From an uncultured Thermoanaerobaculia bacterium (lineage in GTDB: Bacteria > Acidobacteriota > Thermoanaerobaculia > Thermoanaerobaculales > Sulfomarinibacteraceae), in the NCBI GenBank assembly GCA_964552395.1, contig CAZKGM010000003.1, positions 50,030 to 114,029 on the forward strand: a stretch of DNA of 64,000 nt, read 5' to 3'. Of this stretch, positions 35,721 to 57,160 are shown piece by piece. How positions within the stretch are numbered: the first letter of the stretch is position 1; every line of letters starts with the position of its first letter. Position numbers and translations under genes: made by a program. A model generated the notes under the pieces. That model was not told the DNA's origin. It saw only the letters and a list, made by a program, of their open reading frames with translations, and made no database searches.

Positions 35721-35740
35721 CTCGTGCCGCCTGCCGCGCT

Positions 35741-37960: not shown

Positions 37961-38026
37961 GCTGCCCTCCTTGGCAGAGATCAAATGCGGGGGCCGGGGG
38001 CACCCGGCCCCCGCAGGGTGTCAGCA

Positions 38027-38275
38027 TCAGCCGCCCGAGCCCTCCTCCGGCGGCAGGGTGATGAAGGAACCGCCGAAGTAGCTGTAGATGCAGCGCCCGG
38101 AGTCGATCAGCTGCCGGATCGCGAGCTTGCACAGCTTCTTGTCGACGGCGTCGTCGCCGAACTTTTCGATCATGGCCTTGGTCAGGTCCATGGCCTTCAG
38201 GTTCTTCTTGCCATGTGTGACCTTGACCAGGTCGAACATGGCCTGGGCCACCTCATCGACTATGGGCTGACTCAT
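38027..38275 (-). CDS. dsrD: DsrD
   Basis: 82 aa directly after dsrB; K..KKNLK..DL and LIDSGRCIYSYFGGSF. Confidence 0.88.
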   Translation of the reverse strand: MSQPIVDEVAQAMFDLVKVTHGKKNLKAMDLTKAMIEKFGDDAVDKKLCKLAIRQLIDSGRCIYSYFGGSFITLPPEEGSGG

Positions 38276-39361: not shown

Positions 39362-39377
39362 GGATTCCTCCCTTTCC

Positions 39378-40571
39378 TCACTGATCCTCGTCTTCGAGCT
39401 CGTCCTCGAAGAAGATGTAGGGGTTGGTACGCGGATGGGCGACCATCTCGGGCGTCGGCTCGAGACCGATCTCCTCGAGGAAGTTCCCCAGGCCAACGCG
39501 CTGGATAAACTCGCCGACGCGCTCGCGGTTCTTGCCGTACTCGCCCCAGAAGTCCCAGATCGCCTCGGCGAGCTCCTTGAGGTCCTCGTACGGTGGCTTC
39601 ATCTCGAGGAACGGCACGAACACCGCCGACAGCAGAGCGCCGCCGATGATCGGCGCCTTGGCGCCAATCAGGATCGTCGCGCCCCGCTCCTTGCCGGGCC
39701 TCAGCGCCTTCGGCATCACGTTGATGCAGTGCATGCACTTGACGCACTCGGAGTTGTCGATGTCGAGGCTCTTGCCGTCCCACTGGATGCAGTGCGTCGG
39801 GCAGAGCCTGCAGATCTCGTTCCGGATATCGACGCCGTCCGCCGCGTACTTCTGCACCTGCTCCTGGTCGACCTGGATGTCGTCCTTCCAGGTGCCTATG
39901 ATCGACATGTCCGAGCGGGCCACGGAGGCCACGCAGTCGTTCGGGCAACCGGAGAACTTGAACTTGTACTTGTACGGGAACGCCGGCCGGTGCAGCTCGT
40001 CCTGGTAGCTGTGGGTGATGTCGTTGCAGGCATCCAGAGTGTCGTAGCACGCCCACTCGCAGCGGCCGGGGCCGACGCAGCAGCTCGGCGTCCGCACGTC
40101 GGAGCCCGAGCCGCCGAGGTCGAAGCCGTGCGCGGTGAGGTCGGCAAAGCAGGGCTCCAGCGCCTCGGTCTTCGACCCCAGGAAGATGATGTCGCCGGTG
40201 GAGCCGTGCATGTTGGTCAGACCGGAGCCGTGCCGCTCCCAGATATCGCACAACGTACGAAGCACCTCGGAGGTGTAGAACCAGCCGGCGGGCTGGTTGA
40301 CGCGGTAGGTGTGGAACGCCGCAACCTCCGGAAACTCCTCCGGTAGGTCGGAGTACCGGCCGATGACGCCGCCGCCGTAGCCCATGACGCCAACCAGGCC
40401 GCCGTGCTTCCAGTGGCTGATCTTGTCCTCAAACGACCGCTCGAGCTGGCCGAGCGTGTCGCGGGCCATGGGGTTTGTCTCCGCGCTTTTCTTGATCTCC
40501 TTGACGAAGCTCGGCCACGGCCCTTTGTCGAGCTCGTCAAGCAGCGGGGTTGCTCTATTCTTCTCACTCAT
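39378..40571 (-). CDS. dsrA: Dissimilatory sulfite reductase alpha subunit
   Basis: [71 protein letters not shown]. Confidence 0.98.
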
Positions 40572-40589
40572 GTCGACTCCTTTCCCAGA

Positions 40590-42173
40590 TCAGATCTTTG
40601 ACCAATAGCCTGAGAAGACTACTGTTGACAGGAAGTAGCCCAGAGGCACATTGACGAGCACCCCGGCCGTGAACGCCCAGAACGGCTTGAGGCCGAAGTT
40701 GGCGAGCTCGGCGAACCGCGTCGACAGCCCGATGCAAAGGAAGCAGAGCACGAAAGCCCACGACCGCAGCTTCTTCACCGGCGCGATGACCTTCGGGTTG
40801 AGCTCGCTCTCGAACCAATCGGACTTGTACCTCAGCTGGGTGAGCGCCCAGCGCTGACCCTCGCTGGTCGCAACGCCGCGAAGAACGTTGAACTCCTTCA
40901 GCGACATGTGACCCGCGAACGTGATCACGCCCTTCTCGGCCTGGTACTGGAACTTCCCGGCCAGTGACTCGGGCACAGCGTAGGTGGAGAAGTCGGCGCT
41001 GTACTTCGTCTTCCCGGCCTTCGACGAGAAGGTCCCGTCCACCTTGGCCGTCCCGATGTATCCGGGCGGCGGCGCCGCCGAGACCGCGCTCATGATGACC
41101 GAGGCCGCGAAGAACCCGAGAACGAACTTCGGGAACCTCTCCCAGATCACCCCCGCCCCGACGCTCGAGCGTGTTCCCTCCGTATTGCGCTCCCAGAACA
41201 TCACCGACACTACCGACAGGAGTAGGCACCAGATGCCGATCCAGATGTCGCGGCCGATGACCTTCATCAGCGTGAAGGTGTTGATCGGCGAGTCGCCGAA
41301 CTTGGTGGCGAGCTCGGCGACGACGGCGAACCCGGCCGCGTCCGCGAACTCGGACGTACCGATCCAGGCGCCCGCTTCACCGGGACTGATGGTGTGCGGA
41401 ACCATGGCCTTACAGACGAATGTCAGGGTGAAGATCATCACGATTGCCCAGATCGAGACGACGCCGATGCCGATTGCGATATGGTCCTTGTCGGCACGTA
41501 CTGAACCGCCGACGGCAATCGAGGCTGACACGCCGCAAACTGCCCCGCCGGCGCCGAGAACAGCGCCGAAGCGCGGATCCAGCTTGAACACCTTGGTCGC
41601 AACCAGGAAGATCACCAGCCACGTCGTGACCGCGACGATCGTCGCCTGGACGAAGGCGATCGGACCGGCCGAGAAGATCAGGGTCAGCGGCAGTGTGGCG
41701 CCGAGCAGGACGATACCGGTCTTGATGTAGTACTCGGTGCGCAACGAGGTCTTGAACCACTCGGGCACCTTGATGATGTTGCCGATGATAAGGCCGATGA
41801 TGAGCGCGAGCAGCGGCGCGCCGAGATCGTAGCGCTTCATCACCTCCCAGCCCGCGAGGTAGAAGACCACGAGCGAGCCGAGGAAGAGAATGATGTAGCC
41901 AGGAATGAACTCCGACAGTTTGCGGCCCATGATCTTCATCGAGATCGTGAACACGACCCCGAAGACGAGGAAGACCACCGCGACGCCACCAATGTGCTTG
42001 GAAAAGTCAGCGCCCAGCTGGGAGAGGTTGCCCCACGTCCCAGGAGTGACCGCCCAGCCCTTGATTGTCGCGCCGAAGGCATAGGTGATGAGCGCAAGCC
42101 CCATCAGGCCGAGGCCCAGCCACACCGCCCACCAGTCCTCCGTCTTCCAAAGCTTTTCCAACGCCTTTCCCAT
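40590..42173 (-). CDS. YeiH/PSE-family putative sulfur-oxyanion transporter
   Basis: EDWWAVWLG, EYYIKTGIVLLGA, GGAVCGVSA, WIGTSEFADAAG, KVIGRDIWIG, IGLSTRF. Stop lies 19 bp before the dsrA start. Confidence 0.88.
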   Translation of the reverse strand: MGKALEKLWKTEDWWAVWLGLGLMGLALITYAFGATIKGWAVTPGTWGNLSQLGADFSKHIGGVAVVFLVFGVVFTISMKIMGRKLSEFIPGYIILFLGSLVVFYLAGWEVMKRYDLGAPLLALIIGLIIGNIIKVPEWFKTSLRTEYYIKTGIVLLGATLPLTLIFSAGPIAFVQATIVAVTTWLVIFLVATKVFKLDPRFGAVLGAGGAVCGVSASIAVGGSVRADKDHIAIGIGVVSIWAIVMIFTLTFVCKAMVPHTISPGEAGAWIGTSEFADAAGFAVVAELATKFGDSPINTFTLMKVIGRDIWIGIWCLLLSVVSVMFWERNTEGTRSSVGAGVIWERFPKFVLGFFAASVIMSAVSAAPPPGYIGTAKVDGTFSSKAGKTKYSADFSTYAVPESLAGKFQYQAEKGVITFAGHMSLKEFNVLRGVATSEGQRWALTQLRYKSDWFESELNPKVIAPVKKLRSWAFVLCFLCIGLSTRFAELANFGLKPFWAFTAGVLVNVPLGYFLSTVVFSGYWSKI

Positions 42174-42224
42174 GTCCTCCTCCTTCTCCCCCGCGCGACA
42201 TCCACTCCTCCCCGTCGCGCAGAC

Positions 42225-42240
42225 TGCAACCCATGTGCCA
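42225..42240 (-). promoter_or_regulatory. sigma54 promoter of the yeiH-dsrABD...dsrC operon
   Basis: Reverse complement TGGCAC-ATGGG-TTGCA, a perfect consensus; AT-rich tract at about 42265-42295. Confidence 0.88.
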
Positions 42241-42334
42241 GTCGGGCGTTCCCGCAACCGACATGGAAAAGCTTGAAGATGCAGTTATTTATGGAGCCAA
42301 GCCACGATGCTGGCTGCGCGACGCCAGCTGGCCC

Positions 42335-42350
42335 GTTACCTGAGCGTAAC
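42335..42350. promoter_or_regulatory. Palindrome GTTAC-N6-GTAAC (candidate enhancer site 1)
   Basis: GTTAC-CTGAGC-GTAAC. A one-mismatch copy GTAAC-CGTCGG-GTAAC lies at 42438-42453. Confidence 0.75.
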
Positions 42351-42690
42351 CTGCAGGCTCAATGCGCTGAAGGAAAGACACTTGACCGGACAGAGCCAGC
42401 CCGCACCGCCGTTGCCGAGCGAGGCACAAACCGACCCGTAACCGTCGGGTAACAGCCTCTGCCCCCATGAGTCTGGTTCCACAGCAATCTCGATCTGTGG
42501 GCGGACTGAACCTGATCCCGCGCAAGGCGCACCAATCCCGCCAGCTGGACGCCCCACGCGAACGATGACTGGGTTGGCTGGATTCGCTCGCGATGCGCGC
42601 AGCACATCCATGGGAGCGCTTGCCGAGTAGCCCTCCCTTGGCGCTCGAGCGGTGGCTCGACGCCTCTCAGGGGCTACGCGGTGCGCGGTC

Positions 42691-44304
42691 CTAGTGGAAC
42701 TCCCACTCCAGGAAACCCTCGGGGATGTCGCTCATCGCGTTCACGATCAGCTCCACCAGGCCCCCGTACAGGATGCCGCAGCGGTCCCAGGCATCGTAGT
42801 AGGTCAGGAGGTCCCTCATCTGGCCCTTGCAGTTGGAGCACGGCGCGCACACATACTTGTGCGTCTCCGGCTCGATGCAGTCGGCGAACGCCTCCAAGAT
42901 CTGAATGAACTTGACCCGGCCCGCGACCCGGGTTCGCCAGTCCGGGAAGTTGAGAGACTGGCAGACGGCGAAGCCCGACCCGCCGCCACAGCAGAAGTTG
43001 TCGACGCCGTGGGGCTCCATCTCGCGGAAACGGGGCGCGATCTTGGCGAGAATGTTGCGCTGGGGCTGGATGATGCCCATCGAGCGCGTGATGTTGCACG
43101 GGTCGTGCAGGGTGACCGGGAAGTCGTTCCGCGAGGGGTCGAGGGGCAGCCTGCCGCTCAGGACCAGGTCTTCGAGTGTGACCAGGCAGCTCTCGGTGCG
43201 CACCCGCAGCGGGTCCGGGATGAGGCGGTCGGCGGCCGCCATCGTGGCCTTGTGGGCGTGGCCGCACTCACCCATCATGATCTTCTTCACCCCGAGCTTC
43301 TTGGCCACCTCATAGTGCTTGAGCGCAATCCGCGAGAACTGGATGTCATCGTAGAAGAGGCCGTAGTTGACGGAGTCGTACCCCACGAGCTCCGACGACA
43401 GCGTCCATTTGATGCCTGCCGCCTCGAGGATGATCGCGAACGCCTGCAGGTTCTCCGGCCATGACAGGAACTCGCCCGCGTTGTGCAGCACCAGGTAGTC
43501 GGCGCCCTCGACATCGAAGGGGATCTTGATGTCGAGCTTGGTCTTCTCCGTAATATCTTCTTCGGCGAACTCCATGATGTCCATCAGGCCGGCCGGATTG
43601 AGGCCGGTGGAGGAGCCCACCGCCATCTGCTTGACCGTCCCCAGCTCGTGCAGCTCGGGCATGGCGATTCCCAGCTCCTGGCTGAACAGCTTCCTGATCT
43701 CCCGCGTGAGGAGGCCGTTGTCGATCCCGATCGGGCACTGCTGGGCGCAGCGGCGACACAGGGTGCAGCGGTATGACAGCTCGGCGAGCTTGACCAGCGT
43801 TTCCCAGTCGAGCTCGATGTCGTTGCCGCGCAGCTTCGGAAACAGGTTGCCGCCTGGCTTGATGTAGCGGTCGACGATCTTGCGCAGGATCTCGGCGCGG
43901 AACGTCGGACGATACATTTCCATGTGCCCGGACGCCGTGTAGATCGGGCACGCCTCGGCGCAGGTCTGGCACTTGACGCAGTTCTCCATGGACACGAGAA
44001 GCGGCTGCAGGAAGGTCCAGTTGTTCTCCTTGGTCAAGAGCTTGCGCAAGCCGCTGAGGAACCCGGCCACCAGGCGCTCCTTCTCCTCCTCGCTTTTCGG
44101 CACCGGGATCTGGGCGCCGCACACACCATCCGGACCGACCTCGATCCTCGTGCGCTGGTCCTCGGTGATCTCCTTGATCGGCTCATCCACCCAGTCCTCG
44201 TAAGGAGGAGGCAGCGGCAGCAGGCGGGCAGGGTCGACGTCCTCGTTCTCGGCGAGAAAACGGAGCAGGTCTCCCTGCGATGCGATCCTCGGCCTCTCCA
44301 TCAC
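42691..44304 (-). CDS. DsrK/HmcF-like FeS protein with CCG domain
   Basis: CVKCQTCAEACP, CTLCRRCAQQCP, GECGHA, HDPCN, CCGGGSG, CSNC. Confidence 0.88.
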   Translation of the reverse strand: MMERPRIASQGDLLRFLAENEDVDPARLLPLPPPYEDWVDEPIKEITEDQRTRIEVGPDGVCGAQIPVPKSEEEKERLVAGFLSGLRKLLTKENNWTFLQPLLVSMENCVKCQTCAEACPIYTASGHMEMYRPTFRAEILRKIVDRYIKPGGNLFPKLRGNDIELDWETLVKLAELSYRCTLCRRCAQQCPIGIDNGLLTREIRKLFSQELGIAMPELHELGTVKQMAVGSSTGLNPAGLMDIMEFAEEDITEKTKLDIKIPFDVEGADYLVLHNAGEFLSWPENLQAFAIILEAAGIKWTLSSELVGYDSVNYGLFYDDIQFSRIALKHYEVAKKLGVKKIMMGECGHAHKATMAAADRLIPDPLRVRTESCLVTLEDLVLSGRLPLDPSRNDFPVTLHDPCNITRSMGIIQPQRNILAKIAPRFREMEPHGVDNFCCGGGSGFAVCQSLNFPDWRTRVAGRVKFIQILEAFADCIEPETHKYVCAPCSNCKGQMRDLLTYYDAWDRCGILYGGLVELIVNAMSDIPEGFLEWEFH

Positions 44305-45194
44305 TTTCCCCCCTTCGTGTCGTGCTCTGGCACCTCGGTCACGACCTCGGCCCAGCTGCGGCCGGTCTGGATGTGCGGCGCCGACCAGTCCATCCCGTAC
44401 TGCAGCGCCGCCTCCAGACGAGATGAGAACGGGCCTCCGGCCACGTACGGCCGATCATCCCACCGCACCTTGTGGTAGGTAAAGTACTTGGCGAAGAAGT
44501 GCACCATCCGCGTGTAGGGCATGTAGAGAACGAACAACGCACCCAGCGCCATCTGGAGCCCGAGGAGCGGCGTGACATCGAGTGGCTTCAAGCGCAGCAC
44601 GGAGGCGACCGCTGCGCCCGCGCCCGCCAGCCCATCGGTGACCACCACGGCCGTGCTCGCCGCCCCGAACGCCAACAACAGCAGGAGGTTGAGGCGATCC
44701 AGCGGCGTCGTGTACGGCCTCAGCTTGGGGCTCGACGAGCGCTCGATCAGGAGCACGGTTGCGCCCACGAGCAGCAGGCCGCCGCCGAAGCCGGCCAGCC
44801 ACGGGAGCACGATGCTCAGGATCGCCGGCGACCAGCCCAGCCCCTGTACGACGAGGCCCACCGTGGTGACGACGAGGAGGTAGAGCCCCCAGTGGAACGG
44901 CATCGATCCCCACCACAGGCTGCGGTTGTTCTTCCACACGCCCTTCAGCAGGACGATCTCCTCACCCATGGCGCTCACCTCTCCGACCAGGCTCGTCCGC
45001 CGCTTGTGGGTCCACCAGTCCTTTTCCTCGAGGTAGGAGCCGCCGTGATCCCGGCGCGGCTCGTGTGCCACGGGGTACAGATCCCACCTCAGATGCATCG
45101 GCGTCAGCGCATAGTGAAGCCCCTTCATGACACATCCCGCGATGAACCCGATAACTGCCACCCAGACCCACGCCAGCAAGCCGATCCCCGCCAT
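44301..45194 (-). CDS. DsrM/NarI-like membrane cytochrome b
   Basis: RWDLYPV, FHWG, PYTRMVHFF, about 5-6 TM; translationally coupled to the DsrK-like gene. Confidence 0.82.
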   Translation of the reverse strand: MAGIGLLAWVWVAVIGFIAGCVMKGLHYALTPMHLRWDLYPVAHEPRRDHGGSYLEEKDWWTHKRRTSLVGEVSAMGEEIVLLKGVWKNNRSLWWGSMPFHWGLYLLVVTTVGLVVQGLGWSPAILSIVLPWLAGFGGGLLLVGATVLLIERSSSPKLRPYTTPLDRLNLLLLLAFGAASTAVVVTDGLAGAGAAVASVLRLKPLDVTPLLGLQMALGALFVLYMPYTRMVHFFAKYFTYHKVRWDDRPYVAGGPFSSRLEAALQYGMDWSAPHIQTGRSWAEVVTEVPEHDTKGGK

Positions 45195-45240
45195 GAAACC
45201 TCCCCGGCCCGGCACCCGGCCGGACACCGCCGTTCGACCG

Positions 45241-45256
45241 AGCAAGTATCGTGCCG
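45241..45256 (-). promoter_or_regulatory. sigma54 promoter of the dsrM/K-like pair
   Basis: Reverse complement CGGCAC-GATAC-TTGCT. Confidence 0.82.
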
Positions 45257-45393
45257 TCTCAGCATCGGCACCACTCGGCGGCTGCGGCGAACCAGAGTGC
45301 ACGCAAGTGGCGCGGCACCCAGCCGTTGCCGACCGCTCGTCGCGCCTTCACGATCCAGCGCCTCGCCTGCAGACCGCCGCCGCCGGGCAAGCA

Positions 45394-45409
45394 GTTACGG
45401 AAAGGTAAC
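45394..45409. promoter_or_regulatory. Palindrome GTTAC-N6-GTAAC (candidate enhancer site 2)
   Basis: GTTAC-GGAAAG-GTAAC, 138 bp upstream of the -24 element. Confidence 0.75.
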
Positions 45410-45436
45410 GTGCCCCGGGCCCGGACCTTCATGCGC

Positions 45437-45478
45437 GATCCCAGCGAGACCGGCGAGACTTCTGTCAGCGCTGGGATC
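45437..45478. terminator. Hairpin downstream of the TVP38 gene
   Basis: GATCCCAGCG...CGCTGGGATC inverted repeat; no clear U-tract. Confidence 0.35.
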
Positions 45479-45595
45479 TGAGCGTCGAGCTGCCGCAGGC
45501 ATACTTGACGGTATGTTGAGGACAGCGAGGCGTGAAGGGCACCGCGATGGCTGGCGTATCGCCGGCCGCGGTAGATCGCGAGTGAATGATCTGGG

Positions 45596-46348
45596 CTATG
45601 AGCCCTGTATCAGGTCGTCCTTGGCATAGCGTTTCTTCACCCAGCTCGGGATGAGCGACAGCAGGACGAAGAAGATGGCTGCTATCGCCAGGTAGACAAT
45701 GGTCTTCTTCACAGCTTCCGGCTGCCCTCCGGAGAGGATCACCTCACGCGCCGAGCCGGCGGCGAAGTTGAAGGCGATGGTCGCCGGGATCATGCAGGGA
45801 AAGGTCACGAGAATGTAGGTCCGCAGCGGGATATCGGTCAGGCCGTAGACGTAGTTCTGGACATTGAACGGAAAGAGCGGCACCAGGCGGGTGATCATCA
45901 GCATCCGCCACCCCTGCTTGCGGACGCCGTCGTCGATCTTCTTGAGGGCCCGGTTCTTTTCGACCCACCCGGCGACCATGTCGCGGGCCGCGTAGCGGCC
46001 GATGAGGAAGGCCAGCACGGCCCCCAGGTTGGCGCCCACCGTGGTCCACACCGACCCCCACACCGCACCGAAGATGAGGCCGCTAACGATGGACATCGGC
46101 AGACCCGGCAGCAGCAGAACGCAGGCGATGATCCAGATCGCGATCAGCGCCGCCGGCGCCCACGGTCCCATACCGTGGAAGAACGCATCGAGCCTCAAGA
46201 CGCGGTCCTTGAGCGTCCCTCCCTTGAGCATGTCGAAGACGCCGAAGTGGTTGGCAATGAGGATCAGCGCCGCGATCGCGGCCAGCACCACTACCAGCTT
46301 GATCCAGGGCCTGCCGCCGCCGGCCTTGTCCTCGCGTTCTCCGCTCAT
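45596..46348 (-). CDS. TVP38/TMEM64 (DedA superfamily) membrane protein
   Basis: LPGLPMSIVSGLIFG, FLIGRY, RLVPLFPFNVQNYVYGLT. Confidence 0.9.
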   Translation of the reverse strand: MSGEREDKAGGGRPWIKLVVVLAAIAALILIANHFGVFDMLKGGTLKDRVLRLDAFFHGMGPWAPAALIAIWIIACVLLLPGLPMSIVSGLIFGAVWGSVWTTVGANLGAVLAFLIGRYAARDMVAGWVEKNRALKKIDDGVRKQGWRMLMITRLVPLFPFNVQNYVYGLTDIPLRTYILVTFPCMIPATIAFNFAAGSAREVILSGGQPEAVKKTIVYLAIAAIFFVLLSLIPSWVKKRYAKDDLIQGS

Positions 46349-46491
46349 GGTCTGTACTCCTTCCCAATGGTAGGCCCTCAAGCTGCGCCCGAAGGCCCAC
46401 CCGGATCACCCGCGGACGTTAGCCGGACACCGAGGAACGAAGCGGGCCGGGAATGACCCCGGCCCGCCTTCCCTCGAAATCGCGAGCCGGT

Positions 46492-47463
46492 CTACTTGCA
46501 GTCGTCGCACACGATGTTGTTCGGATAAGCCTTGTTGTAGTAGCTCCACTCGATCCACGAGCCATCGTAGTTGTGAAGATGGGAGATATCCCATCCCATG
46601 AGGTAGAGCGAGAAGATCTCGGTCGTCGTGCGGACGCCCGACTGGCAGTAGAAAATCTGGTGCTTGTTCTTGTCCATGCCGATTGCATCGATGAGCTTCT
46701 GGGTGGCGGCGGCGTCCTTCCAGGCGGTCGCCTCCCCACCCTCGGCCACCGGCTGCTTGAACGCCGGCCAGTTCTGATGCTTGGCCCACGGAATGCGGCC
46801 CTTGGCGTAGGCGCCCTTCTTGAGCTGCTCGCCGCTCCACTCCTTGCCGCCGCGCGTATCCCACAGCTGGTACTCCGGCGAGGTCTTGACCCGCCAGATC
46901 TCCGACAGCCCGACGGTCCACCCGGGCAGCTCATCGGCTGCGACAAAGGTCCCCTCCTTGGCCGGCCTGGCCGGCAGGTGATCGACATCGTAGCCGGCCG
47001 CCTTCCACGCCTGGAAGCCGCCGTCGAGGACCCGGCAGTCCGTCTTGCCGTACAGGTAGAACATCCACCATACCCGTGTCGAGTCGTACTTGTGATCGTA
47101 GATGACGACCTTCGAGTCGTTGTCGATCCCGAGCTCGCGTGCGAACGCCTGGAAGGCGTCGCGGTCGAGGGCCATCCCCTCGTACGGGAACTCCACGCCT
47201 TCCTTGGGCTCGTAGTCGCCCCGCCAGATGTGCAGTGCACCCGGGACATGGCCAAGGCCGTAGTCGGTGAGCTTGGCAACCGCCAGGACCACCAGCTTGG
47301 GGTCCTTGGCATCCATCATCGACTTCAGCTCCTGGGCCGTGATCAAGGCTTGACCGCGCTCGAAACCCTTGTAGTTGTCTCCCGCGAGGAGCGGCGCCGC
47401 GGCACCTATGACGAGGGCCAGGATCACGACGATCGGCCACCTGCAGAATCGTTGCTGGGACAT
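46492..47463 (-). CDS. Exported tandem-domain rhodanese/sulfurtransferase
   Basis: Sec signal peptide, GHVPGA, VLDGG, DTRG..E, GRIPWA, active-site FYCQSGVRT, YDGSWIEW. Confidence 0.92.
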   Translation of the reverse strand: MSQQRFCRWPIVVILALVIGAAAPLLAGDNYKGFERGQALITAQELKSMMDAKDPKLVVLAVAKLTDYGLGHVPGALHIWRGDYEPKEGVEFPYEGMALDRDAFQAFARELGIDNDSKVVIYDHKYDSTRVWWMFYLYGKTDCRVLDGGFQAWKAAGYDVDHLPARPAKEGTFVAADELPGWTVGLSEIWRVKTSPEYQLWDTRGGKEWSGEQLKKGAYAKGRIPWAKHQNWPAFKQPVAEGGEATAWKDAAATQKLIDAIGMDKNKHQIFYCQSGVRTTTEIFSLYLMGWDISHLHNYDGSWIEWSYYNKAYPNNIVCDDCK

Positions 47464-47517
47464 GTCTCTCCTCCTTTGCATTCACGTTCAGACAGCCACT
47501 ACGGCCGGAACATCTAG

Positions 47518-47533
47518 TGCAAGCTGCGTTCCA
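47518..47533 (-). promoter_or_regulatory. sigma54 promoter of rhodanese-TVP38
   Basis: Reverse complement TGGAAC-GCAGC-TTGCA; AT-rich tract at about 47540-47572. Confidence 0.8.
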
Positions 47534-47587
47534 CCACCGATATTGTGCTAACCTATTGTTGATGAAGTAATTGAGCGGTGACAGGAG

Positions 47588-49045
47588 CTATTCCGAGGCC
47601 GTGCCCGCAGGTGCCGTGTGGGGCCGGTAACCGTCTTCGTTACCCTGCTGTAACAGCCGCCTCGCCTCGGGTGGAGTGTAGTGGAGGGGGAGCTCGACGG
47701 CAAAGGTGCTGCCCGCCCCCTCCTCACTGCTGACGGCCACACCACCGCCGTGCGCCTCGAAGACCTCTCGCACAATCGCGAGACCGAGCCCCGTCCCCTC
47801 CGGCGCGTGACGCTTTGCGTTCGGCGCGCGAACGAACTCGAGCAGGACTTGATCGCGGAACGCCGCCGGAATTCCGATGCCGCGATCGAGCACCTGAACC
47901 GTCACGGCGGTGTCGTTGACGCGCAGGCGAACCGTCACGGCGCCTCCCCGATACGAGTACTTGATTGCGTTTTGGACCAGGTTCTCGAAGGCATGGACCA
48001 GATCGGGGGGAATCCCCCAGTCGAGGATGGCCACACCGTCGAAGTCCGGGACCAGCTCGATATTCCGCTCCGCGGCCAGCGGCTCCAAGGCATCCATGAT
48101 GTCGGCCAACAGCTGGTTGACGTTGATAGCCCGGCTCCACGGGGCCCGACCCCGGCCCTCCCGAATCTTGGCCAGCTCGAGCAGGTCGTTGACGATCGCC
48201 AGCAGGCCGTCGACCCGCTCGATCGCACCGGCGAGCAGGCGGCGCCCGCGTTCGGAGGCAGGGTCGACGTAGCCCTTCGCCAGCACAGACAGCGTCGTCT
48301 GGACGGTTCCCAACGGCGACCGGAGCTGGTGGGCCGAGATCCGCATGTAGTGCGACTTGCGTTGCTCGAGCTCGGCGATCTCATCGAGCAGGCACTGCAG
48401 CTCGGTCGTGCGCTCCTGCAGCTTGCCGGTGGTCCTGTAGAGCTCGATGTTGCGCTTCTTGAAGCGGCTGGTCACCGAGTCCGTGAGGTAGACGATGCCG
48501 AAGAGGGCGACCGTGAGAGCCACGAGGTTGAGGTCACAGGCACGGCCGCACATGCCGCGAGTAGGATCGACGGGATGGACGGCGAGTAGCCCCTTGCCCT
48601 CCGCCATGTACAGCCCGAGAAGACCGACAGACGTTGCTGCGGCCAGGACATACATGATTCGGGTCGCGATCATGATGGTCCCGATCGCCATGTGAAATGC
48701 GAACACCGGGAGCAACGGGCTCTGCAAGCCTCCGCTGAAGTGAACGGTCACGACCAGCGACAGGAGGTCCATGACCATCTGCCGGATGGCGCAGCTGCGG
48801 AGGTTCCCGTAAGGTTGGCCGTGCTCCTCCGCAATGCGAAACACATTGAAGAAGATCAAGTTGTAGGCGGCCACGAAGAGGGCCACCAGGAACAGGCTCG
48901 GCCATACCGACTGCATGCCGATGCGCGGGCCCACAAGCGACGCCGCCACCAGCCCCGCGACCGCCAGCCAGCGGAGCTTGATGAACCACTGCAGACGTTC
49001 CCGTAGCTCCGGGGCGAAGATGAAGGCGAACCGGGACTCGGCCAA
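47588..49045 (-). CDS. Membrane sensor histidine kinase
   Basis: About 6 N-terminal TM; H-box SAHQLRSPL; NLVQNAIKY, DRGIG, GTGLGL, GAGSTF. Confidence 0.92.
   Translation of the reverse strand: MAESRFAFIFAPELRERLQWFIKLRWLAVAGLVAASLVGPRIGMQSVWPSLFLVALFVAAYNLIFFNVFRIAEEHGQPYGNLRSCAIRQMVMDLLSLVVTVHFSGGLQSPLLPVFAFHMAIGTIMIATRIMYVLAAATSVGLLGLYMAEGKGLLAVHPVDPTRGMCGRACDLNLVALTVALFGIVYLTDSVTSRFKKRNIELYRTTGKLQERTTELQCLLDEIAELEQRKSHYMRISAHQLRSPLGTVQTTLSVLAKGYVDPASERGRRLLAGAIERVDGLLAIVNDLLELAKIREGRGRAPWSRAINVNQLLADIMDALEPLAAERNIELVPDFDGVAILDWGIPPDLVHAFENLVQNAIKYSYRGGAVTVRLRVNDTAVTVQVLDRGIGIPAAFRDQVLLEFVRAPNAKRHAPEGTGLGLAIVREVFEAHGGGVAVSSEEGAGSTFAVELPLHYTPPEARRLLQQGNEDGYRPHTAPAGTASE
47639..47654. promoter_or_regulatory. 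Palindrome GTTAC-N6-GTAAC (candidate enhancer site 3, inside the 3' end of the kinase gene)
   Basis: GTTAC-CCTGCT-GTAAC, 106 bp upstream of the -24 element. Confidence 0.72.
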
Positions 49046-49048
49046 GCA

Positions 49049-49432
49049 CTACTCCCCGATCAGCTCCGCAACGTGGGCCAGGAGCTCCTCGGGGGAGACG
49101 GGCTTCTCAAGGTAGCGGTCGCACGGCACCCACGACTCGTCGACCTCCATCCTCACGTTGTAGACCTGGTCCACACCGGTGAGCATGATGATCGGGATGG
49201 CGGCGGTCGCCGGATCCGTGCGCAACGTGCGCGCCACGTCGAAGCCTTCCGAGAGGTGGTCCATCATCACGTCGAGAACGATCAGATCCGGCGCTGCCTC
49301 GTGGACCCGAGCCAACCCCTCCGTTCCGTTGCCCGCTGTCGAGATGCGGTAGCGGGTTTCCAGTACCGCTGACACCGCGTCCACGAAAACCTCGTCGTCG
49401 TCGATCAGGAGGACTGTCTTCCTCTCGTCCAT
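49049..49432 (-). CDS. Stand-alone response regulator receiver
   Basis: LLIDDD, LDVMM, IIMLT, YLEKP; no output domain. Confidence 0.9.
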   Translation of the reverse strand: MDERKTVLLIDDDEVFVDAVSAVLETRYRISTAGNGTEGLARVHEAAPDLIVLDVMMDHLSEGFDVARTLRTDPATAAIPIIMLTGVDQVYNVRMEVDESWVPCDRYLEKPVSPEELLAHVAELIGE

Positions 49433-49440
49433 GGGACCTC

Positions 49441-51351
49441 CTAGTGTCCGACCAGCGCCCCTGTTGGACATGCGGTGAGGCATGAGCCACAGTGGATGCA
49501 CAGCTCCTGGTTCACGGAGTGCACATGCTTGATCGTACCCGAGATGGCATCCGATGGACAGGCCTTGGCGCACAGTCCGCAGCCGTTGCACAGCTCCTCA
49601 CTGATCGAGTATGTCAGCAACGCCTTGCACTGGCCCGCGGGACAACGACGATCGACTACGTGGGCCTCGTACTCCTCGCGGAAGTGGCGCAACGTCGACA
49701 GGACGGGGTTCGGCCCGGTTTGTCCGAGGCCGCAGAGCGCGGTTCCCTTGATGTGAGCGGCCATCGACTCCAGGAGATCGAGATCCTCGAGCCGTCCCCG
49801 GCCGGCGGTGATCTCCTCCAGAGTATTCAGCATCACCCTGGTGCCGATGCGACAGGGAGGACACTTACCGCATGACTCGTCGACCACGAACTCGAGGAAG
49901 AAGCGCGCCAGCTCCACCATGCAGGTGGAGGAATCCATGACGATGAGGCCCCCCGAGCCCATGATGGCACCCAGCTCCTGCAGCGACTCGTAGTCGATCG
50001 GGGTATCGGCGGCCGACGCCGGTATGCAGCCCCCGGATGGACCGCCCGACTGCGCCGCCTTGAACGGTAGCCCCGAGCGCATCCCGCCGCCGATCTCCTC
50101 CACCACCTCAGCCAGCGAGACACCCATCGGCACCTCGACCAGCCCGGTGTTGCGAACCGCCCCCGCAAGGGCGAACACCTTGGTTCCCTTGCTTCGCTGG
50201 GTGCCGATGCCGGCGTACCAGTCGGCGCCTCGGAGCAGAATCGGAGGCACGTTGGCCCATGTCTCGACGTTGTTGAGCAAGGTCGGCCGGTTCCACAGCC
50301 CACACTGAGCGGGGAACGGCGGCCGCGGTCGCGGTGTACCACGCTGTCCTTCGATCGACCGCATGAGGGCCGTTTCCTCGCCGCACACGAAGGCTCCGGC
50401 CCCGATCCGAATCTCGACCTCGAAGGTGTGCCCGGAGCCCAGGATATCGGGCCCCAGCAGGCCGCAGCGCCACGCGTTCTCGATCGCGCCCTCGAGTCGT
50501 TCGATCGCGAGAGGGTACTCGGCCCTGACATAGATGTAGCCCTGACGCGAGCCGATGACACGGCCCGCTATCGTCATCGCCTCGATGACGGAGAGCGGGT
50601 CTCCCTCGAGGATGCTGCGGTCCATGAACGCGCCGGGATCGCCCTCGTCGGCGTTGCAGACCACGTACTTGACGTCGCCGGCCGCCTCACGAACGAACTG
50701 CCACTTGAGGCCGGCAGGAAAACCGGCGCCGCCGCGGCCGCGCAGGCCGCTTCGCTTGAGAGCGTCGAGCACCTCGGTCGCTTCGAGGTCGAACAGGACC
50801 TTCTCGAGAGCCCTGTAGCCATCGGCTGCCACGTACTCCTCGAGGCTCGCGGGATCGATCACGCCGCAGTTGCGCAGCGCGATCTTCTGCTGCCGCGCGA
50901 AGAACGGTACCTCTCTGCTGTGCAAGAGCTTGCCCTCGGGCGTCTCCCAGGCAAGCTCGAGATCGGCCACAGGGGTGTTGCCGGCCAGATGCTCGGAGAC
51001 GACGCGCTGCACCTTTTCTGGATCGAGCATCGGGTAATACACACCGTCCGGCACCACAAGGGCCAGGGGGCCGGCGTCGCACAGCCCCATGCAACCCACC
51101 TCGACCACTCTCACGGCATCCTGGAGCCCTGCGCCGGCAACCTCGTCGCGCAGGGCCTGCGCGACAGAGTCGGCATGGCAAGAAACACAAGCTCCACCAG
51201 CGCACACCAGCACCTCGCGCCGGACCGGAGTCTCTCCACGACGGCTCTCGAGCCGCGTCGCGAGCTGCGTCGACAGGGCGCTGCGAATGGCCGCCAGGTC
51301 CGTCCTCGTGAGCGGGTTGGGGATCGCCGAGTCAGGCAGGTTCGTCGCCAC
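49441..51351 (-). CDS. HydB/NuoF-like NAD(H)/FMN subunit with N-terminal [2Fe-2S] and C-terminal 2x[4Fe-4S]
   Basis: CAGGAC...CMGLC, LRGRGGAGFP, CNADEGDPGAFMDR, CGEETAL, SCGKCPPCRIG, CNGCGLCAKACP. Confidence 0.92.
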   Translation of the reverse strand: MATNLPDSAIPNPLTRTDLAAIRSALSTQLATRLESRRGETPVRREVLVCAGGACVSCHADSVAQALRDEVAGAGLQDAVRVVEVGCMGLCDAGPLALVVPDGVYYPMLDPEKVQRVVSEHLAGNTPVADLELAWETPEGKLLHSREVPFFARQQKIALRNCGVIDPASLEEYVAADGYRALEKVLFDLEATEVLDALKRSGLRGRGGAGFPAGLKWQFVREAAGDVKYVVCNADEGDPGAFMDRSILEGDPLSVIEAMTIAGRVIGSRQGYIYVRAEYPLAIERLEGAIENAWRCGLLGPDILGSGHTFEVEIRIGAGAFVCGEETALMRSIEGQRGTPRPRPPFPAQCGLWNRPTLLNNVETWANVPPILLRGADWYAGIGTQRSKGTKVFALAGAVRNTGLVEVPMGVSLAEVVEEIGGGMRSGLPFKAAQSGGPSGGCIPASAADTPIDYESLQELGAIMGSGGLIVMDSSTCMVELARFFLEFVVDESCGKCPPCRIGTRVMLNTLEEITAGRGRLEDLDLLESMAAHIKGTALCGLGQTGPNPVLSTLRHFREEYEAHVVDRRCPAGQCKALLTYSISEELCNGCGLCAKACPSDAISGTIKHVHSVNQELCIHCGSCLTACPTGALVGH

Positions 51352-51949
51352 TGGCCTCCTCCTCCGCTGACGCGGCGCTCTCTCGCCGCGCCCGTGCCCG
51401 CAACTTCCGAACCAGCTTCCGCACCTCGGTGGCAGTCAGGTGACCGTGCACCTCATCGTTCACCATCATGGCCGGAGCGAGGCCGCAGGCACCGATGCAG
51501 CGCACCTGCTCGAGACTGAAGAGTCGGTCCTCAGTGACATCACCAATCCCGATCGCGAGCAGGCTCTCGATCGCCTCCAGCACGCGCTGTCCCTGCCGAA
51601 CGAAGCAAGCGGTTCCCATACACACCTTGAGCTGATACCGACCGCGGGGGTTGGTGGTAAAGAAGTGGTAGAAGCTGACCACGCCGTAGACCTCGATCGG
51701 CGACAGAGCGAGCTGCTGGGCGACGTACTCCTGGACCGGAAACGGAAGGTAGCCGATCTCCTCCTGCACCCTGTGCAACAGCGGAATCAGCCGCTCCCGT
51801 CCGCCGGGGTGCGCGGCAACCCACTGGTCGATCAGGTCCCACACCTCCGGACGGATCTCGTCGGCCGGAAGCGGTTCCTGGGTCCCGAAGAAGCCCGGCA
51901 ACTCGCCCGTTGTGCGCTGCCGCTCTTCCACCCCCGTACGCTCGCTCAT
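51332..51949 (-). CDS. HydC/NuoE-like [2Fe-2S] subunit
   Basis: VVSFYHFF, VCMGTAC, RCIGACGLAP. Confidence 0.92.
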   Translation of the reverse strand: MSERTGVEERQRTTGELPGFFGTQEPLPADEIRPEVWDLIDQWVAAHPGGRERLIPLLHRVQEEIGYLPFPVQEYVAQQLALSPIEVYGVVSFYHFFTTNPRGRYQLKVCMGTACFVRQGQRVLEAIESLLAIGIGDVTEDRLFSLEQVRCIGACGLAPAMMVNDEVHGHLTATEVRKLVRKLRARARRESAASAEEEASGDEPA

Positions 51950-54474
51950 TTCGACCTCCGGACCTCAACTGCCGTCGGCTCGGCCCCGTTCTCCATCAGC
52001 CGCGCAGCCGCATCCTCGCTGCCGTACCACTGCGCCACCGGCCTCCCCGGCCTCACCCGGCGGTCAAGCCGGGCGCGAAGCAGAATCTCCCTGCCGCCCG
52101 CCCTGACGCACACGCGCTCGCCGTTGCGGACACCGACGGCCTCGGCGTCGGACGGGGCGAGGTGGAGGGCGACAGTCGGCGCCAGCTCCTGGAGAGTCGC
52201 GCTGAAGCTGGTCACCAGCCCGCTGTGGAACAGACGGGGCGAGGCGTCGAGCAGCATCCCGCTCGGCTTCCTGCTTCCTATCGGCGGCGGCGCGGCGGCA
52301 AGACTCACCGTGGGCCGCTGAGCCGCTCCGGCCAGGGCTGCTGCGATCTCCTCGTCGAGGAGCAGCTTCGACGGCAGCTCCACGCCCAGCCGCCGCGCAA
52401 CCTCCACGATCAAGCGGCCATCCTGGGGAAGGCCCGCCGGAGCCTGCACGACTCCGGCAAGGCGCCGCCGCTGTCCGTCGGCGGCGACCACGGACCCTTC
52501 CCGCTCGCCCAGGATCGCTACCGGCAGCACGACGTCGGCAAGGCGGGCGGACTCGGTGAGGAACGTGTCCTGCACCACCACGAACTCCGCGCTCCGCACC
52601 ATGGCACGCCCGGCCAGGCGTCTGGGCCAGGAGCCCACCGGGTCCTCGCCAACGAGGTAGAGCAGCCCTACCTCCCCCGTCGCCGCGTGCTCGCTAGCTT
52701 CAGCAAGGGACCATCCCGGGGCTGCAGGCACCGGTACGCCCCATGCCGCCTCGAGCCCAGCTGTCGCCTCGCAGTCGCCAACACGCTTGCCGCCCGGCAG
52801 CAGTCGAGGATGGAGACCAACGTCGAGCACGCCCTGCACGTTTGCCTTTTCGCCCAGGACCATCACCTTCGGTTCGGCTCCATCCCCGCCGCCGAGAAGC
52901 GACATCAGCTCGACTGCGGCACGTGTCACCTCGGCCTCGTCGCCCGGGATGCCGAGCCCGGTCAGCACCACGGCGACTGGTGCGGTCGCCGCAAGCAGGC
53001 GCTCGGCAAGCTCCTCGAGCCGTTCCGGCGCCACCCCGGTGATCTCCGAGGCCGTCACCGGTGTGTAGGCACCGAGGCTGGTGAGCCAGTCCGAGAGCCC
53101 GGCGGCCCCTTGGTCCCTGGCTATCCCGGAGCGCTCCGCCACCCGTGCGGCCACCGCCCGTACCAGGACCTCCTCTGTTCCGAGAGCCGGCGAAAGGTGC
53201 ATGGCGGCGTGTCGCTCCAGTCCGCCCGAGAGACCATGCACGAGGATGAAGTCCCGTCCCCGTTGCCGGGCCCCCTGTACGAGCTCGGTCTTCACGAGCG
53301 GGTGGGTCCGGGTGGGGTCCGCCCGCAGCACGAGGACCAGGTCCGCGGCCCACAGGTCCTCGAACGTGGCCGTCGACCGCGCCGCGCCTGTGCGCTGGCC
53401 CATCCCGTCGACCAGTGCCTCGACACCGCCCACAGGTCCGACTCCGACATGCGGTGAGCCGAGGCCGCCGCGCACCAGCCGCTGCAGGAGATAGGCGTCC
53501 TCGCAGGTGAGGCGGGAGCTTCCGACCGCGACCACAGCCTTCTTCGACCGGCGAGTCTCGGCGGCAATACGCTCGACCTCGGCCAGCGCTTCGGCCCAGC
53601 TGGCGTCGACCAGGCGCCCGCCGCGCCGCACCAGCGGCACCGACAGCCGCTGCGGGCTGGTGAGAACGTCCCAGCCGAGCCAACCCTTGGCGCAAAGCTT
53701 GCCGCGGTTGGGCGCCGTGTCCGGGTCCGCCGTGACCCGCTGCAGGGCCCCGCCGTGCGTCTCAACCGTCACCTGACAGCCGCAGCTGCACAGGGAGCAG
53801 GTCGTCACAGCCCTTTGCCGGAGCCACGCCGGTACGTCCGAGTGGTAGGGCCTGGCGGAGAGCGCTCCCACCGGACAGGAGTTGACACACTGGCCGCAGA
53901 ACTCGCAGTCCAGCGGTCGCTCGAGAAACGTGGTGACCCGTGCATCGAGGCCGCGGTTGACAATGCCGATCTCCGCCACCCCCTGTACCTCGTCGCACAG
54001 GCGAACGCAACGGCCGCACAGGATGCACTTCTCTGCGTCGCGGACGATGACCGGCGAACGGTCGTCGAGCGGCACCTGCCGGCGCTCGAACGGCAACAGG
54101 GCATCGGCAACTCCGTGGTCGAAGACCAAGTCCTGGAGACGGCAGTCGCCACTCTTTTCGCACACCGGACACTCCATCCGATGATCGAGCACGATCAGCT
54201 GCAGCTGCCGCCGTCTTGCCTCGATCACCTGCGGCGTGTCGGTCTCGACAATCATGCCCCGCTGCACCGGGGTCGAGCACGCCGGCACCAGGCCGCCGCG
54301 CCCGTCCCGCCGCTCTACCAGACACAGACGACAGCCTCCGTAGGGGGTCAGGCGATCGTCGTGGCACAGCGTGGGTACGGAGATCCCGAGCCCCCGCAGG
54401 ACCTCGAGGACCGAGGCGCCGGAGCTGGCCTCGAGCTGCTCACCGTTGACCGTGATCGGCACGCTCGCCGTCAT
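51946..54474 (-). CDS. NuoG/FdhA-like FeS relay subunit with molybdopterin-fold C-terminus lacking a catalytic ligand
   Basis: CH...CRLC...C [2Fe-2S], HRMECPVC...C, 2x CxxCxxCxxxC, CSLCSCGC...LCAKG. No C/U-H motif in the Mo-ligand region. Confidence 0.85.
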   Translation of the reverse strand: MTASVPITVNGEQLEASSGASVLEVLRGLGISVPTLCHDDRLTPYGGCRLCLVERRDGRGGLVPACSTPVQRGMIVETDTPQVIEARRRQLQLIVLDHRMECPVCEKSGDCRLQDLVFDHGVADALLPFERRQVPLDDRSPVIVRDAEKCILCGRCVRLCDEVQGVAEIGIVNRGLDARVTTFLERPLDCEFCGQCVNSCPVGALSARPYHSDVPAWLRQRAVTTCSLCSCGCQVTVETHGGALQRVTADPDTAPNRGKLCAKGWLGWDVLTSPQRLSVPLVRRGGRLVDASWAEALAEVERIAAETRRSKKAVVAVGSSRLTCEDAYLLQRLVRGGLGSPHVGVGPVGGVEALVDGMGQRTGAARSTATFEDLWAADLVLVLRADPTRTHPLVKTELVQGARQRGRDFILVHGLSGGLERHAAMHLSPALGTEEVLVRAVAARVAERSGIARDQGAAGLSDWLTSLGAYTPVTASEITGVAPERLEELAERLLAATAPVAVVLTGLGIPGDEAEVTRAAVELMSLLGGGDGAEPKVMVLGEKANVQGVLDVGLHPRLLPGGKRVGDCEATAGLEAAWGVPVPAAPGWSLAEASEHAATGEVGLLYLVGEDPVGSWPRRLAGRAMVRSAEFVVVQDTFLTESARLADVVLPVAILGEREGSVVAADGQRRRLAGVVQAPAGLPQDGRLIVEVARRLGVELPSKLLLDEEIAAALAGAAQRPTVSLAAAPPPIGSRKPSGMLLDASPRLFHSGLVTSFSATLQELAPTVALHLAPSDAEAVGVRNGERVCVRAGGREILLRARLDRRVRPGRPVAQWYGSEDAAARLMENGAEPTAVEVRRSK

Positions 54475-54485
54475 CTTCAAACCCC

Positions 54486-56612: not shown

Positions 56613-56709
56613 ACGCTACCTCCGCCTTGCCGCCGGCCGGAGATCGCTCGCCCACGACCCTCGGCGGGCCTCACGCGCCTCTCCGAACCGTTCCGATCCT
56701 CGCCGACCG

Positions 56710-56967
56710 TCACCGATTCGTAACATCATCGGCCACCCGTTCGAAACGTGCGGGTCGGAGCTCGAACTCTCTGCAGGCCACCTCCGGATCCTGAAAGGTG
56801 TTCCGCACCGCGCAGATGCCCGCGCGCCCGCGCGTCGAGCCATAGGACGACGACAGCACGAGGATGCCGGGGAAGCTCCTCTCGAGAGCCGCCGGATCGT
56901 CCTGGAAGTACCTGCACTCAGCACAGGTTCGGCTCTCCTCGACAGCTGAAGGGTGATCTCTGATCAT
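56710..56967 (-). CDS. Small 4-Cys protein (C-X2-C-X33-C-X12-C-X2-F)
   Basis: 85 aa ORF directly after a sigma54 motif, on the same strand as the cluster. Confidence 0.65.
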   Translation of the reverse strand: MIRDHPSAVEESRTCAECRYFQDDPAALERSFPGILVLSSSYGSTRGRAGICAVRNTFQDPEVACREFELRPARFERVADDVTNR

Positions 56968-56990
56968 GCTGCACCACCACCGCCGGGTCA

Positions 56991-57006
56991 TGCAATTGGT
57001 ATGCCC
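56991..57006 (-). promoter_or_regulatory. sigma54 promoter of the flavo-FeS/CCG unit
   Basis: Reverse complement GGGCAT-ACCAA-TTGCA keeps the GG-N10-GC spacing. Confidence 0.7.
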
Positions 57007-57160
57007 GACGACGGGCGACCGCTCTTCCGCGGACGCATCGCGTCACGCAGGGCCGTCAAGGGCCTCGAGCGCCTGCCGACACGACGGCACGATCACCGGC
57101 ATCTCCGGCGCAGCAGCCGCGGGCTCGTGGAAAGTGCCGGTTAGAGGCTCGGCCGGACCT

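Follow-up and report, generated by a model that had tools for sequence, protein, structure and literature searches.

Three perfect copies of the palindrome GTTAC-N6-GTAAC were found upstream of three sigma-54 promoters in a 64-kb stretch (67% G+C) of contig CAZKGM010000003.1, from an uncultured Thermoanaerobaculia bacterium. This stretch is referred to here as the window. The promoters precede yeiH and dsrAB, dsrMK, and a rhodanese-dedA gene pair. All of the relevant genes are encoded on the minus strand. The palindromes are very probably functional sigma-54 enhancers. The arrangement is kept in related genomes, so one activator very likely docks at the palindrome. The fuller proposal, that the copies are enhancers of a dsr regulon served by a single OrpR-like redox-sensing sigma-54 activator, is favored with moderate confidence. 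The type of DNA element was already known. No account of its use for dsr genes was found, and this regulon has not been described before.

The on and off control of dsr genes is poorly understood. Acidobacteriota carrying Dsr, including marine lineages, are abundant and uncultured. In a report on a cultivated acidobacterial relative, sulfate reduction is described as being combined with oxygen respiration.

Palindromes in the Window

The three copies without mismatches are located at 42335-42350, 45394-45409, and 47639-47654. A motif scan of the window returned these three only, in agreement with the initial annotation of this DNA. The annotated distances of 95, 138, and 106 bp between the copies and the -24 elements were exact when measured edge-to-edge. 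No perfect palindrome was present in 100 dinucleotide-preserving shuffles of the window. GTTAC and GTAAC half-sites numbered 23 in total in the 64 kb, from which approximately 0.002 correctly spaced pairs would be expected by chance compared to the three observed. The initial hand estimate of well under 0.1 perfect sites per 64 kb holds. Two copies with one mismatch, at 42438 and 56709, had also been annotated and were both recovered.

The motif is short, with 10 specified bases, and nothing else speaks for the palindromes being a chance coincidence or a non-regulatory repeat. Against this are the excess of observed over expected copies and flanks without similarity of the mobile-repeat type. 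The motif is also strictly coupled to sigma-54 elements, and it is kept across genomes while its spacers vary freely. This explanation is refuted, and its probability was set at practically nil.

Sigma-54 Promoters and Activator Sites

Promoters were scored against the sigma-54 consensus TGGCAC-N5-TTGC with the core GG-N10-GC. P1, P2, and P3 each have zero or one mismatch to the consensus and lie 48-56 nt before start codons that are preceded by a Shine-Dalgarno sequence. These promoters, the predicted sites, and the genes described below are all on the minus strand.

P1 (42226..42240, TGGCACATGGGTTGC) is 53 nt upstream of the yeiH start codon. Its GG and TTGC positions are invariant in an alignment of yeiH/dsrA upstream regions (alignment A3). 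The predicted upstream activator site 1a (42335..42350) is a perfect palindrome 95 bp upstream of P1. A second predicted site, 1b (42438..42453), is found 103 bp upstream of site 1a and has one mismatch, reading GTTAC-N6-GTTAC on the gene strand. A second copy at the identical 103-bp offset is present in the related locus L001 (alignment A3).

P2 (45242..45256, CGGCACGATACTTGC) is 48 nt upstream of the dsrM start codon, and its GG-N10-GC core was kept in 10/10 aligned dsrM upstream regions (alignment A1). Predicted site 2 (45394..45409) is a perfect palindrome 138 bp upstream of P2. A copy with zero or one mismatch precedes dsrM in L001-L006, L008, and L015.

P3 (47519..47533, TGGAACGCAGCTTGC) is 56 nt upstream of the rhodanese start codon, and TGG.A.G....TTGCA is invariant at this position in the aligned rhodanese upstream regions (alignment A2). 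Predicted site 3 (47627..47654) is 106 bp upstream of P3. It is comprised of the palindrome at 47639-47654 and an extra half-site at 47627-47631, which is 7 bp promoter-proximal to the palindrome. L001, L006, and L086 share this three-part layout, and L005 has part of it (alignment A2). Site 3 had been annotated as lying within the coding sequence of a histidine kinase. This was confirmed, with the site placed in the last 24 codons of the kinase frame (residues ~462-485), a non-conserved C-terminal tail. The stretch matching site 3 is intergenic in L004, L005, and L006. The enhancers probably also include site 1b and the extra half-site at P3.

The one-mismatch copy at 56709..56724 (minus strand) overlaps the stop codon of a small Cys-rich frame upstream of an hdrA-like gene. 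No sigma-54 element with two or fewer mismatches was found downstream of it. It was not accepted as a fourth member of the regulon. The Cys-rich frame itself (56710-56991, minus strand) contains a CxxC motif and had no Pfam match. It is called as an 85-amino acid gene in L201-L203.

Other control elements were searched for in the same region. No sigma-70 consensus promoter or terminator beyond chance was found in the three control regions (scan of 41800-49600). No Rfam family was matched in 40000-58000, and a riboswitch or small RNA reading was therefore dropped. The palindrome was also rejected as a terminator, as it has a 5-bp stem, a free 6-nt loop, and no T run. The consensus for integration host factor, WATCAANNNNTTR, had no match with one or fewer mismatches between the sites and the promoters. 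AT-rich patches (at least 13 of 20 positions A or T) were present between enhancer and promoter at P1 (42255-42290) and P3 (47538-47580) and absent at P2, in this genome of 67% G+C.

Conservation in Related Acidobacteriota

Orthologues of dsrMK were collected by a DsrK scan using one genome per species, which gave 80 loci. The nearest were metagenome-assembled genomes of Acidobacteriota, several of them labeled Thermoanaerobaculia or Vicinamibacteria. Nine genomes (L001-L008 and L015) were treated as close relatives, leaving 71 more distant dsrK loci. The close relatives contained 13 perfect copies of the palindrome in 162 kb compared to 0.014 expected. The distant loci contained two compared to 0.3 expected, and these two were treated as chance on that basis. 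The first (L021, position 5057) is in AT-rich DNA and the second (L060, position 8029) is inside a stretch matching dsrN. Both were rejected as real sites as no sigma-54 element with one or fewer mismatches is near either. The promoter-linked motif is confined to the nine closest of the 80 dsrK loci.

The palindrome followed by a sigma-54 element recurs ahead of dsrMK, (yeiH-)dsrAB, and rhodanese-dedA in the nine genomes and in many metagenome contigs. All 22 copies with one or fewer mismatches in the nine relatives have a GG-N10-GC element (two or fewer mismatches) on the gene strand 81-206 bp downstream, measured from the palindrome center to the GG. Seen from the promoters, a copy of the motif precedes 22 of the 26 good sigma-54 elements in 226 kb, whereas a random position would be followed by such an element with a chance of 1.5%. 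In some relatives the same unit of motif and promoter also precedes a dsrT-like gene (RsbRD_N domain) and the genes of a second HdrD/DsrM/DsrO/NrfD-cytochrome complex.

Phylogenetic footprinting had been proposed in the initial annotation as a check on the motif, and its outcome was positive. The half-sites and the -24/-12 boxes were kept in the nine relatives and in ~35 metagenome contigs while the 6-bp spacer and the other intergenic DNA drifted (alignments A1-A3). The palindrome was the sole conserved element upstream of the -24/-12 boxes in these alignments. The sites, the promoters, their conservation, and the adjacency of an activator gene in relatives (described below) are direct observations.

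Metagenomes were queried with GTTAC-N6-GTAAC, a gap of 75-105 nt, and TGGCAC-N5-TTGC, and at least 120 loci were returned. Among the matches listed, gap lengths were non-uniform, with peaks at 93-95 nt (32 loci), 97 nt, and 84 nt. The 32 loci of the first peak have dsrA-type promoters, at which the gap from motif to -24 element is nearly fixed. Site 1a has this gap, as do the corresponding sites in L001, L002, L005, and L006. Approximately 35 of the matches listed are dsrA, yeiH-dsrA, dsrT, or HdrD2 promoters of similar dsr clusters. The motif with its sigma-54 element is therefore a practical search key, having recovered the dsr promoters of dozens of uncultured relatives.

Many other matches listed were promoters of genes for TAT-signal Rieske proteins resembling the small subunit of arsenite oxidase (AioB), and these led to the known AioR box considered in the last section. 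In L085, L094, L121, L131, L200, and others in the range L081-L200, the motif and a perfect sigma-54 element precede such Rieske genes. The spacer GTTTTC recurs in several of these loci. The Rieske-linked copies are probably AioR-type boxes. Eight further loci, from a lineage of low G+C (38-49%; L093, L112, L140, L157, L162, L174, L178, and L196), carry a conserved GTTACACAAGCGTAAC, a gap of 97-98 nt, and then TGGCACACTAATTGC. In L196 this unit precedes a gene for a stand-alone receiver with a Cys-rich insert. In lineages with dsrA placed immediately after the promoter, as in L191 (~2930-3170) and L150 (alignment A3 columns 290-500), the long 5' leader still encodes the first ~20 residues of YeiH (…LQKLWKIEDYWAVW…), which looks like the remnant of a lost yeiH gene.

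CRP-type sites also have a 5-N6-5 layout, and some sigma-54 activators have no DNA-binding domain. Both points would suit a palindrome bound by a factor other than an enhancer-binding protein, such as a CRP/FNR-like protein, another dimeric regulator, or a repressor, with the sigma-54 activator acting from solution or from another site. The conservation pattern does not fit this well. The palindrome alone is conserved upstream of the -24/-12 boxes, and it lies at the classical enhancer distance, near-fixed at 93-95 nt for dsrA-type promoters. In relatives the gene beside the palindrome is for an activator whose HTH_8 domain is intact, and AioR binds a site of identical geometry. Such a factor was considered quite improbable.

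Candidate Activator in Sister Lineages

A gene for a sigma-54 activator adjoins the motif in sister lineages. In 14 metagenome loci among the matches listed, 17-375 bp separate the end of this gene from the motif that follows at the (yeiH-)dsrAB promoter, and the gene is on the same strand. The same order was seen in L204 and L205, two long contigs found by protein identity. Genes for sigma-54 activators usually adjoin their target promoters. The candidate activator is 453-468 amino acids in length with PAS, Sigma54_activat, AAA-lid, and HTH_8 domains (Pfam, in L191, L170, L129, P0089, and P0120). No NCBIfam family was above the cut-off. More than 100 close homologues at 74-99% identity were found, one of which is named Thermoanaerobaculales. 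All of 12 diverse activators compared have C52, C53, C61, and C65, with D or E as residue 54. The loop GAFTDA and the helix LGIHPSTL(F/Y)RK are also invariant in the 12.

OrpR (DVU2106) of Desulfovibrio vulgaris Hildenborough is reported to have conserved C52, C61, and C65 and an acidic residue at position 54 (PMC8359166). The OrpR cysteines hold a redox-sensitive [4Fe-4S] center in the PAS domain, and the protein is active only at low redox potential (PMC8359166). The Cys cluster within the candidate's PAS domain probably holds a redox-sensitive [4Fe-4S] center as well.

Three groups from other phyla also have OrpR-like genes adjoining dsrMK, again with the PAS cysteines and GAFTDA: Thermodesulfobacteriota (L009, L010, L013, L016, and L017), Ignavibacteria (L021, L022, and L028), and Gemmatimonadota (L058 and L079). 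Their helix-turn-helix (HTH) sequences differ. The DNA downstream of the OrpR-like gene also differs in its palindromes, which are of the same type. Thermodesulfobacteriota have GAAAC/GTTTC repeats and then a sigma-54 element, Gemmatimonadota have GTTTC-N6-GAAAC, and Ignavibacteria have GTTGC/GCAAC. The helix and the neighboring site change together, as is expected if the neighboring site is the protein's own.

The Thermodesulfobacteriota loci share a further layout. In all five the OrpR-like gene (L009 7354-7575 for the region concerned) is followed by several TGAAAC-N5-GTTTCA or TGTTTCA repeats. A sigma-54 element, TGGCATC….TTGC, comes after the repeats in L009, L013, L016, and L017, and none with one or fewer mismatches was found in L010. 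A second AAA+-like gene is next in all five, and then dsrMK.

Search for the Activator in the Window

Several points weigh against an OrpR-like activator at the sites in the window. No OrpR-like gene was found in the 64-kb window by tblastn with OrpR-like proteins. Other metagenome assemblies with the same edge genes showed no activator in the ~3 kb beyond each window end. Nor does any of the nine closest genomes have an OrpR-like gene in its 21-kb locus, within 10 kb of dsrK, so that its presence there is an assumption. An rpoN gene was likewise not seen in the window, where no Sigma54 domain was found among the proteins. The match to the OrpR sensor cysteines is a comparison by published residue number only. 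It is presumed that the activator binds the palindrome and loops the DNA, that it signals through an Fe-S center, and that this genome encodes it. Finally, the two-component genes that accompany the cluster could feed a different activator.

We infer that in these lineages the regulator would be encoded elsewhere, its likely identity being taken from the sister lineages. The initial annotation had assigned the palindrome to one activator controlling Dsr respiration, probably encoded outside the cluster. The enhancer part of this reading is supported by footprinting and by the coupling to sigma-54 elements, and the identity proposed here for the activator is an inference. The placement outside the cluster fits this genome, with no activator in the window or just beyond its ends. 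It does not hold for the sister lineages, in which the likely activator gene is inside the cluster and directly upstream of the site.

With OrpR-like proteins as tblastn queries, the best match in the window (31-37%) was to the gene at 15510-16931, in its AAA+ core only. This gene had been named as a candidate for the activator. It is the sole sigma-54 activator in the window and encodes a genuine one, with a Sigma54_activat domain, GAFTGA, and a possible C-terminal HTH. It is 26 kb away and has a Ser/Thr kinase gene beside it, as well as a perfect, motif-less sigma-54 promoter of its own at 12786. The 200 motif-bearing or dsr loci encode nothing comparable to the N- or C-terminal part of the product, matching only its generic AAA+ core (31-43%), and the C-terminal helix is unlike those of the dsr-linked activators. 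No orthologue is near any motif locus. The candidacy is unsupported, and this gene was considered highly improbable as the source of the activator.

The 12786 promoter region is probably a separate sigma-54 unit. As initially annotated, the motif is missing there, with no copy of two or fewer mismatches near the promoter. The perfect promoter (12786-12800, minus strand) is ahead of a gene for a 1222-amino acid protein with BNR/Sortilin repeats. Genes for a 332-amino acid protein of no assigned family, a DsrO-like Fe-S protein, and a 1091-amino acid fusion of NrfD and multihaem cytochrome follow. Just upstream are genes for a tetratricopeptide repeat (TPR) Ser/Thr kinase and for the sigma-54 activator, which has an unassigned N-terminal domain. 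The genes of this unit are at 15510-16931, 12942-15383, 9093-12761, 6729-7736, and 3464-6739.

Kinase and Receiver Genes

A stand-alone receiver protein (49049-49432, Pfam and translation) and a PilS-like histidine kinase with six transmembrane (6-TM) segments (47588-49045, Pfam, translation, and synteny) are encoded upstream of P3. Their genes close an operon of hdrA-like and nuoGEF-like genes. Neither protein has an AAA+ or DNA-binding domain, so they cannot activate sigma-54 themselves. They may feed a second signal into the regulon.

PilS-like kinases usually pair with regulators of the NtrC family. This pairing favors a different identity for the activator, namely an NtrC-type response regulator with receiver, AAA+, and HTH domains that is encoded elsewhere and phosphorylated by the adjacent 6-TM kinase. 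The sites would still be real enhancers. Kinase and receiver genes always accompany the cluster. The window, L001, and L004-L006 have the 6-TM type of kinase, and L002, L003, L008, L015, L204, and L205 have a PAS kinase together with a HEAT protein. AioR, a response regulator of the NtrC type, has a box of identical geometry. L008 encodes a kinase and a receiver-AAA+-HTH_8 protein as a pair 2.4 kb upstream of its dsrM site. That regulator, however, fronts hypDE and has a different recognition helix. The receivers beside the kinases are stand-alone proteins of ~127 amino acids with no AAA+ or HTH domain. No NtrC-type regulator adjoins the motif in the ~45 dsr-type loci listed compared to a PAS-type activator in 16. 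An NtrC-type activator was judged unlikely, and the OrpR-like activator remains the preferred reading.

The operon that ends in the receiver and kinase genes has overlapping stop and start codons. Its upstream part (49049-56612 with the receiver gene, minus strand) is one tight run of genes for an HdrA/GltD-like flavoprotein with a CCG domain and for NuoG/FdhA-, NuoE-, and NuoF-like proteins. The operon might serve the dsr system as an electron input module linked to NAD(P)H. A module of HEAT-repeat protein, stand-alone receiver, and PAS kinase is attached to dsrMK(JOP) in L002, L003, L008, L015, L086, L099, L204, L205, L009, and L010, which span at least two phyla. In L009 and L010 the three genes come after dsrMK.

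Genes Downstream of the Promoters

The stretch downstream of P1 (32913..42173) was delimited by Pfam and NCBIfam matches and start codons. The first gene after P1 encodes a YeiH-like transporter (40590-42173). It is followed by dsrA (39378-40571), dsrB (38285-39363), a gene for an 82-amino acid protein in the DsrD position (38027-38275), orf154 (37520-37984, 154 amino acids with no family assigned), a dsrL-like gene (35741-37480), dsrN (34320-35801), a gene for a TPR protein (33233-33841), and dsrC (32913-33230). The gene order is common to L001, L005, L006, L204, and L205. The genes from yeiH to dsrC may form one operon or several, and full-length co-transcription is presumed.

Downstream of P2 are dsrM (44301-45194), with the Pfam domain Nitrate_red_gam, and dsrK (42691-44304), with Fer4_8 and CCG domains. 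Downstream of P3 are genes for a two-domain rhodanese (46492-47463) and a DedA/VTT membrane protein (45596-46381), both identified by Pfam and NCBIfam. The rhodanese and dedA gene pair is also present in L001, L004, L005, L006, and L086.

Proposed Mechanism

In the proposed mechanism a dimer of the activator would bind each GTTAC-N6-GTAAC, the half-site centers being 11 bp apart, or one helical turn. The activator would then assemble into its active ring. Looping of the DNA would bring it into contact with the sigma-54 RNA polymerase at the -24/-12 boxes ~100-150 bp downstream, and its use of ATP would open the promoter. Three units, yeiH-dsrAB-(dsrD-like)-dsrL-dsrN-dsrC, dsrMK, and rhodanese-dedA, would be induced together as the core of dissimilatory sulfite metabolism. 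The activator is envisaged as OrpR-like, with an N-terminal PAS domain bearing the Cys cluster, an AAA+ domain with GAFTDA, and a C-terminal HTH_8 domain. If the analogy to OrpR holds, a low redox potential would be required for the pathway to be on.

A wider proposal is put forward tentatively. OrpR-related sigma-54 activators with an Fe-S PAS domain could be the dedicated switch of dissimilatory sulfite reductase clusters in Acidobacteriota, Thermodesulfobacteriota, Gemmatimonadota, and Ignavibacteria. The recognition helix and a box of the GTTNC-N6-GNAAC type (GTTAC, GTTTC, or GTTGC) would co-vary by phylum, with the module of HEAT protein, receiver, and PAS kinase as a second input. In the window the activator gene would have moved away while the sites stayed. 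With a defined enhancer, three promoters, and a candidate redox sensor, the trigger of sulfite respiration is directly testable.

Comparison With Known Boxes and Regulators

No published mention of the exact motif string was found, and no publication linking sigma-54 or an enhancer-binding protein to dsr genes was found. The dsr genes are not mentioned in the paper on the Desulfovibrio sigma-54 regulome (PMC4641369). Sigma factors and promoters are not discussed in the study describing these marine Acidobacteriota.

The closest published DNA element is of the AioR type. The AioR box, GT[TC][AC][CG]-N6-[GCT][GTA]AAC with the footprinted site GTTCGGATTTCCGAAC, is upstream of the sigma-54 promoter of aioBA (PMC5335332). 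Both elements are 16-bp palindromes of 5-N6-5 layout with GTTNC/GNAAC half-sites upstream of a sigma-54 promoter, and the published motif admits GTTAC at positions 1-5 and GTAAC at positions 12-16. The AioR box is bound by an activator of the NtrC family with an HTH_8-type domain. AioR differs in being a phosphorylated response regulator that acts with AioS and AioX and controls arsenite oxidation. No aioXSR or aioBA genes are among the genes of the window, where the downstream genes are dsr, rhodanese, and yeiH. The published R-R-A spacer preference is not kept in the window-type motif, in which the spacer is free.

The core GTTAC/GTAAC is shared with CbrB, an NtrC-family protein of Pseudomonas with the sub-sites TGTTAC and GTAACA upstream of sigma-54 promoters (PMC6296734). 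The CbrB sub-sites, named F1, R1, and R2, are set farther apart in a different arrangement. Their flanking T and A lack conservation in the window-type motif, whose flanks are more often C and G, and CbrB is a response regulator of carbon metabolism. With the 5-N6-5 box known from AioR and the GTTAC core known from CbrB, the DNA element is an ordinary kind of enhancer. The regulon had initially been annotated as a candidate new one on the strength of its motif, and this novelty does not extend to the geometry, which was already known from AioR boxes.

FisR of Cupriavidus and Acinetobacter is a sigma-54 activator that responds to sulfide or polysulfide and controls genes for sulfide oxidation (PMC7315123). 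The likeness is functional only, in that one sigma-54 activator encoded near its targets governs sulfur genes. FisR serves sulfide detoxification (pdo/sqr-type) rather than dsr.

The sister-lineage activator also resembles OrpR. The single-component PAS-AAA+-HTH_8 architecture is shared, as are C52, C61, C65, and the D or E at position 54. GAFTDA, an unusual variant of the sigma-54 contact loop, is also listed for DVU2106 (PMC4641369). In the sister lineages the activator gene adjoins its target promoter, as with OrpR. The architecture and sensor residues together make the candidate OrpR-like. It differs in having no gene in this window and in its adjacent site and targets. OrpR binds GGGCGYRTTTTGCGCCC and its regulon is made up of the two orp operons only (PMC8359166), whereas the site here is GTTAC-N6-GTAAC and the adjacent targets are dsr genes. 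Given these differences in site and targets the candidate is at most a sister subfamily of OrpR and not OrpR itself.

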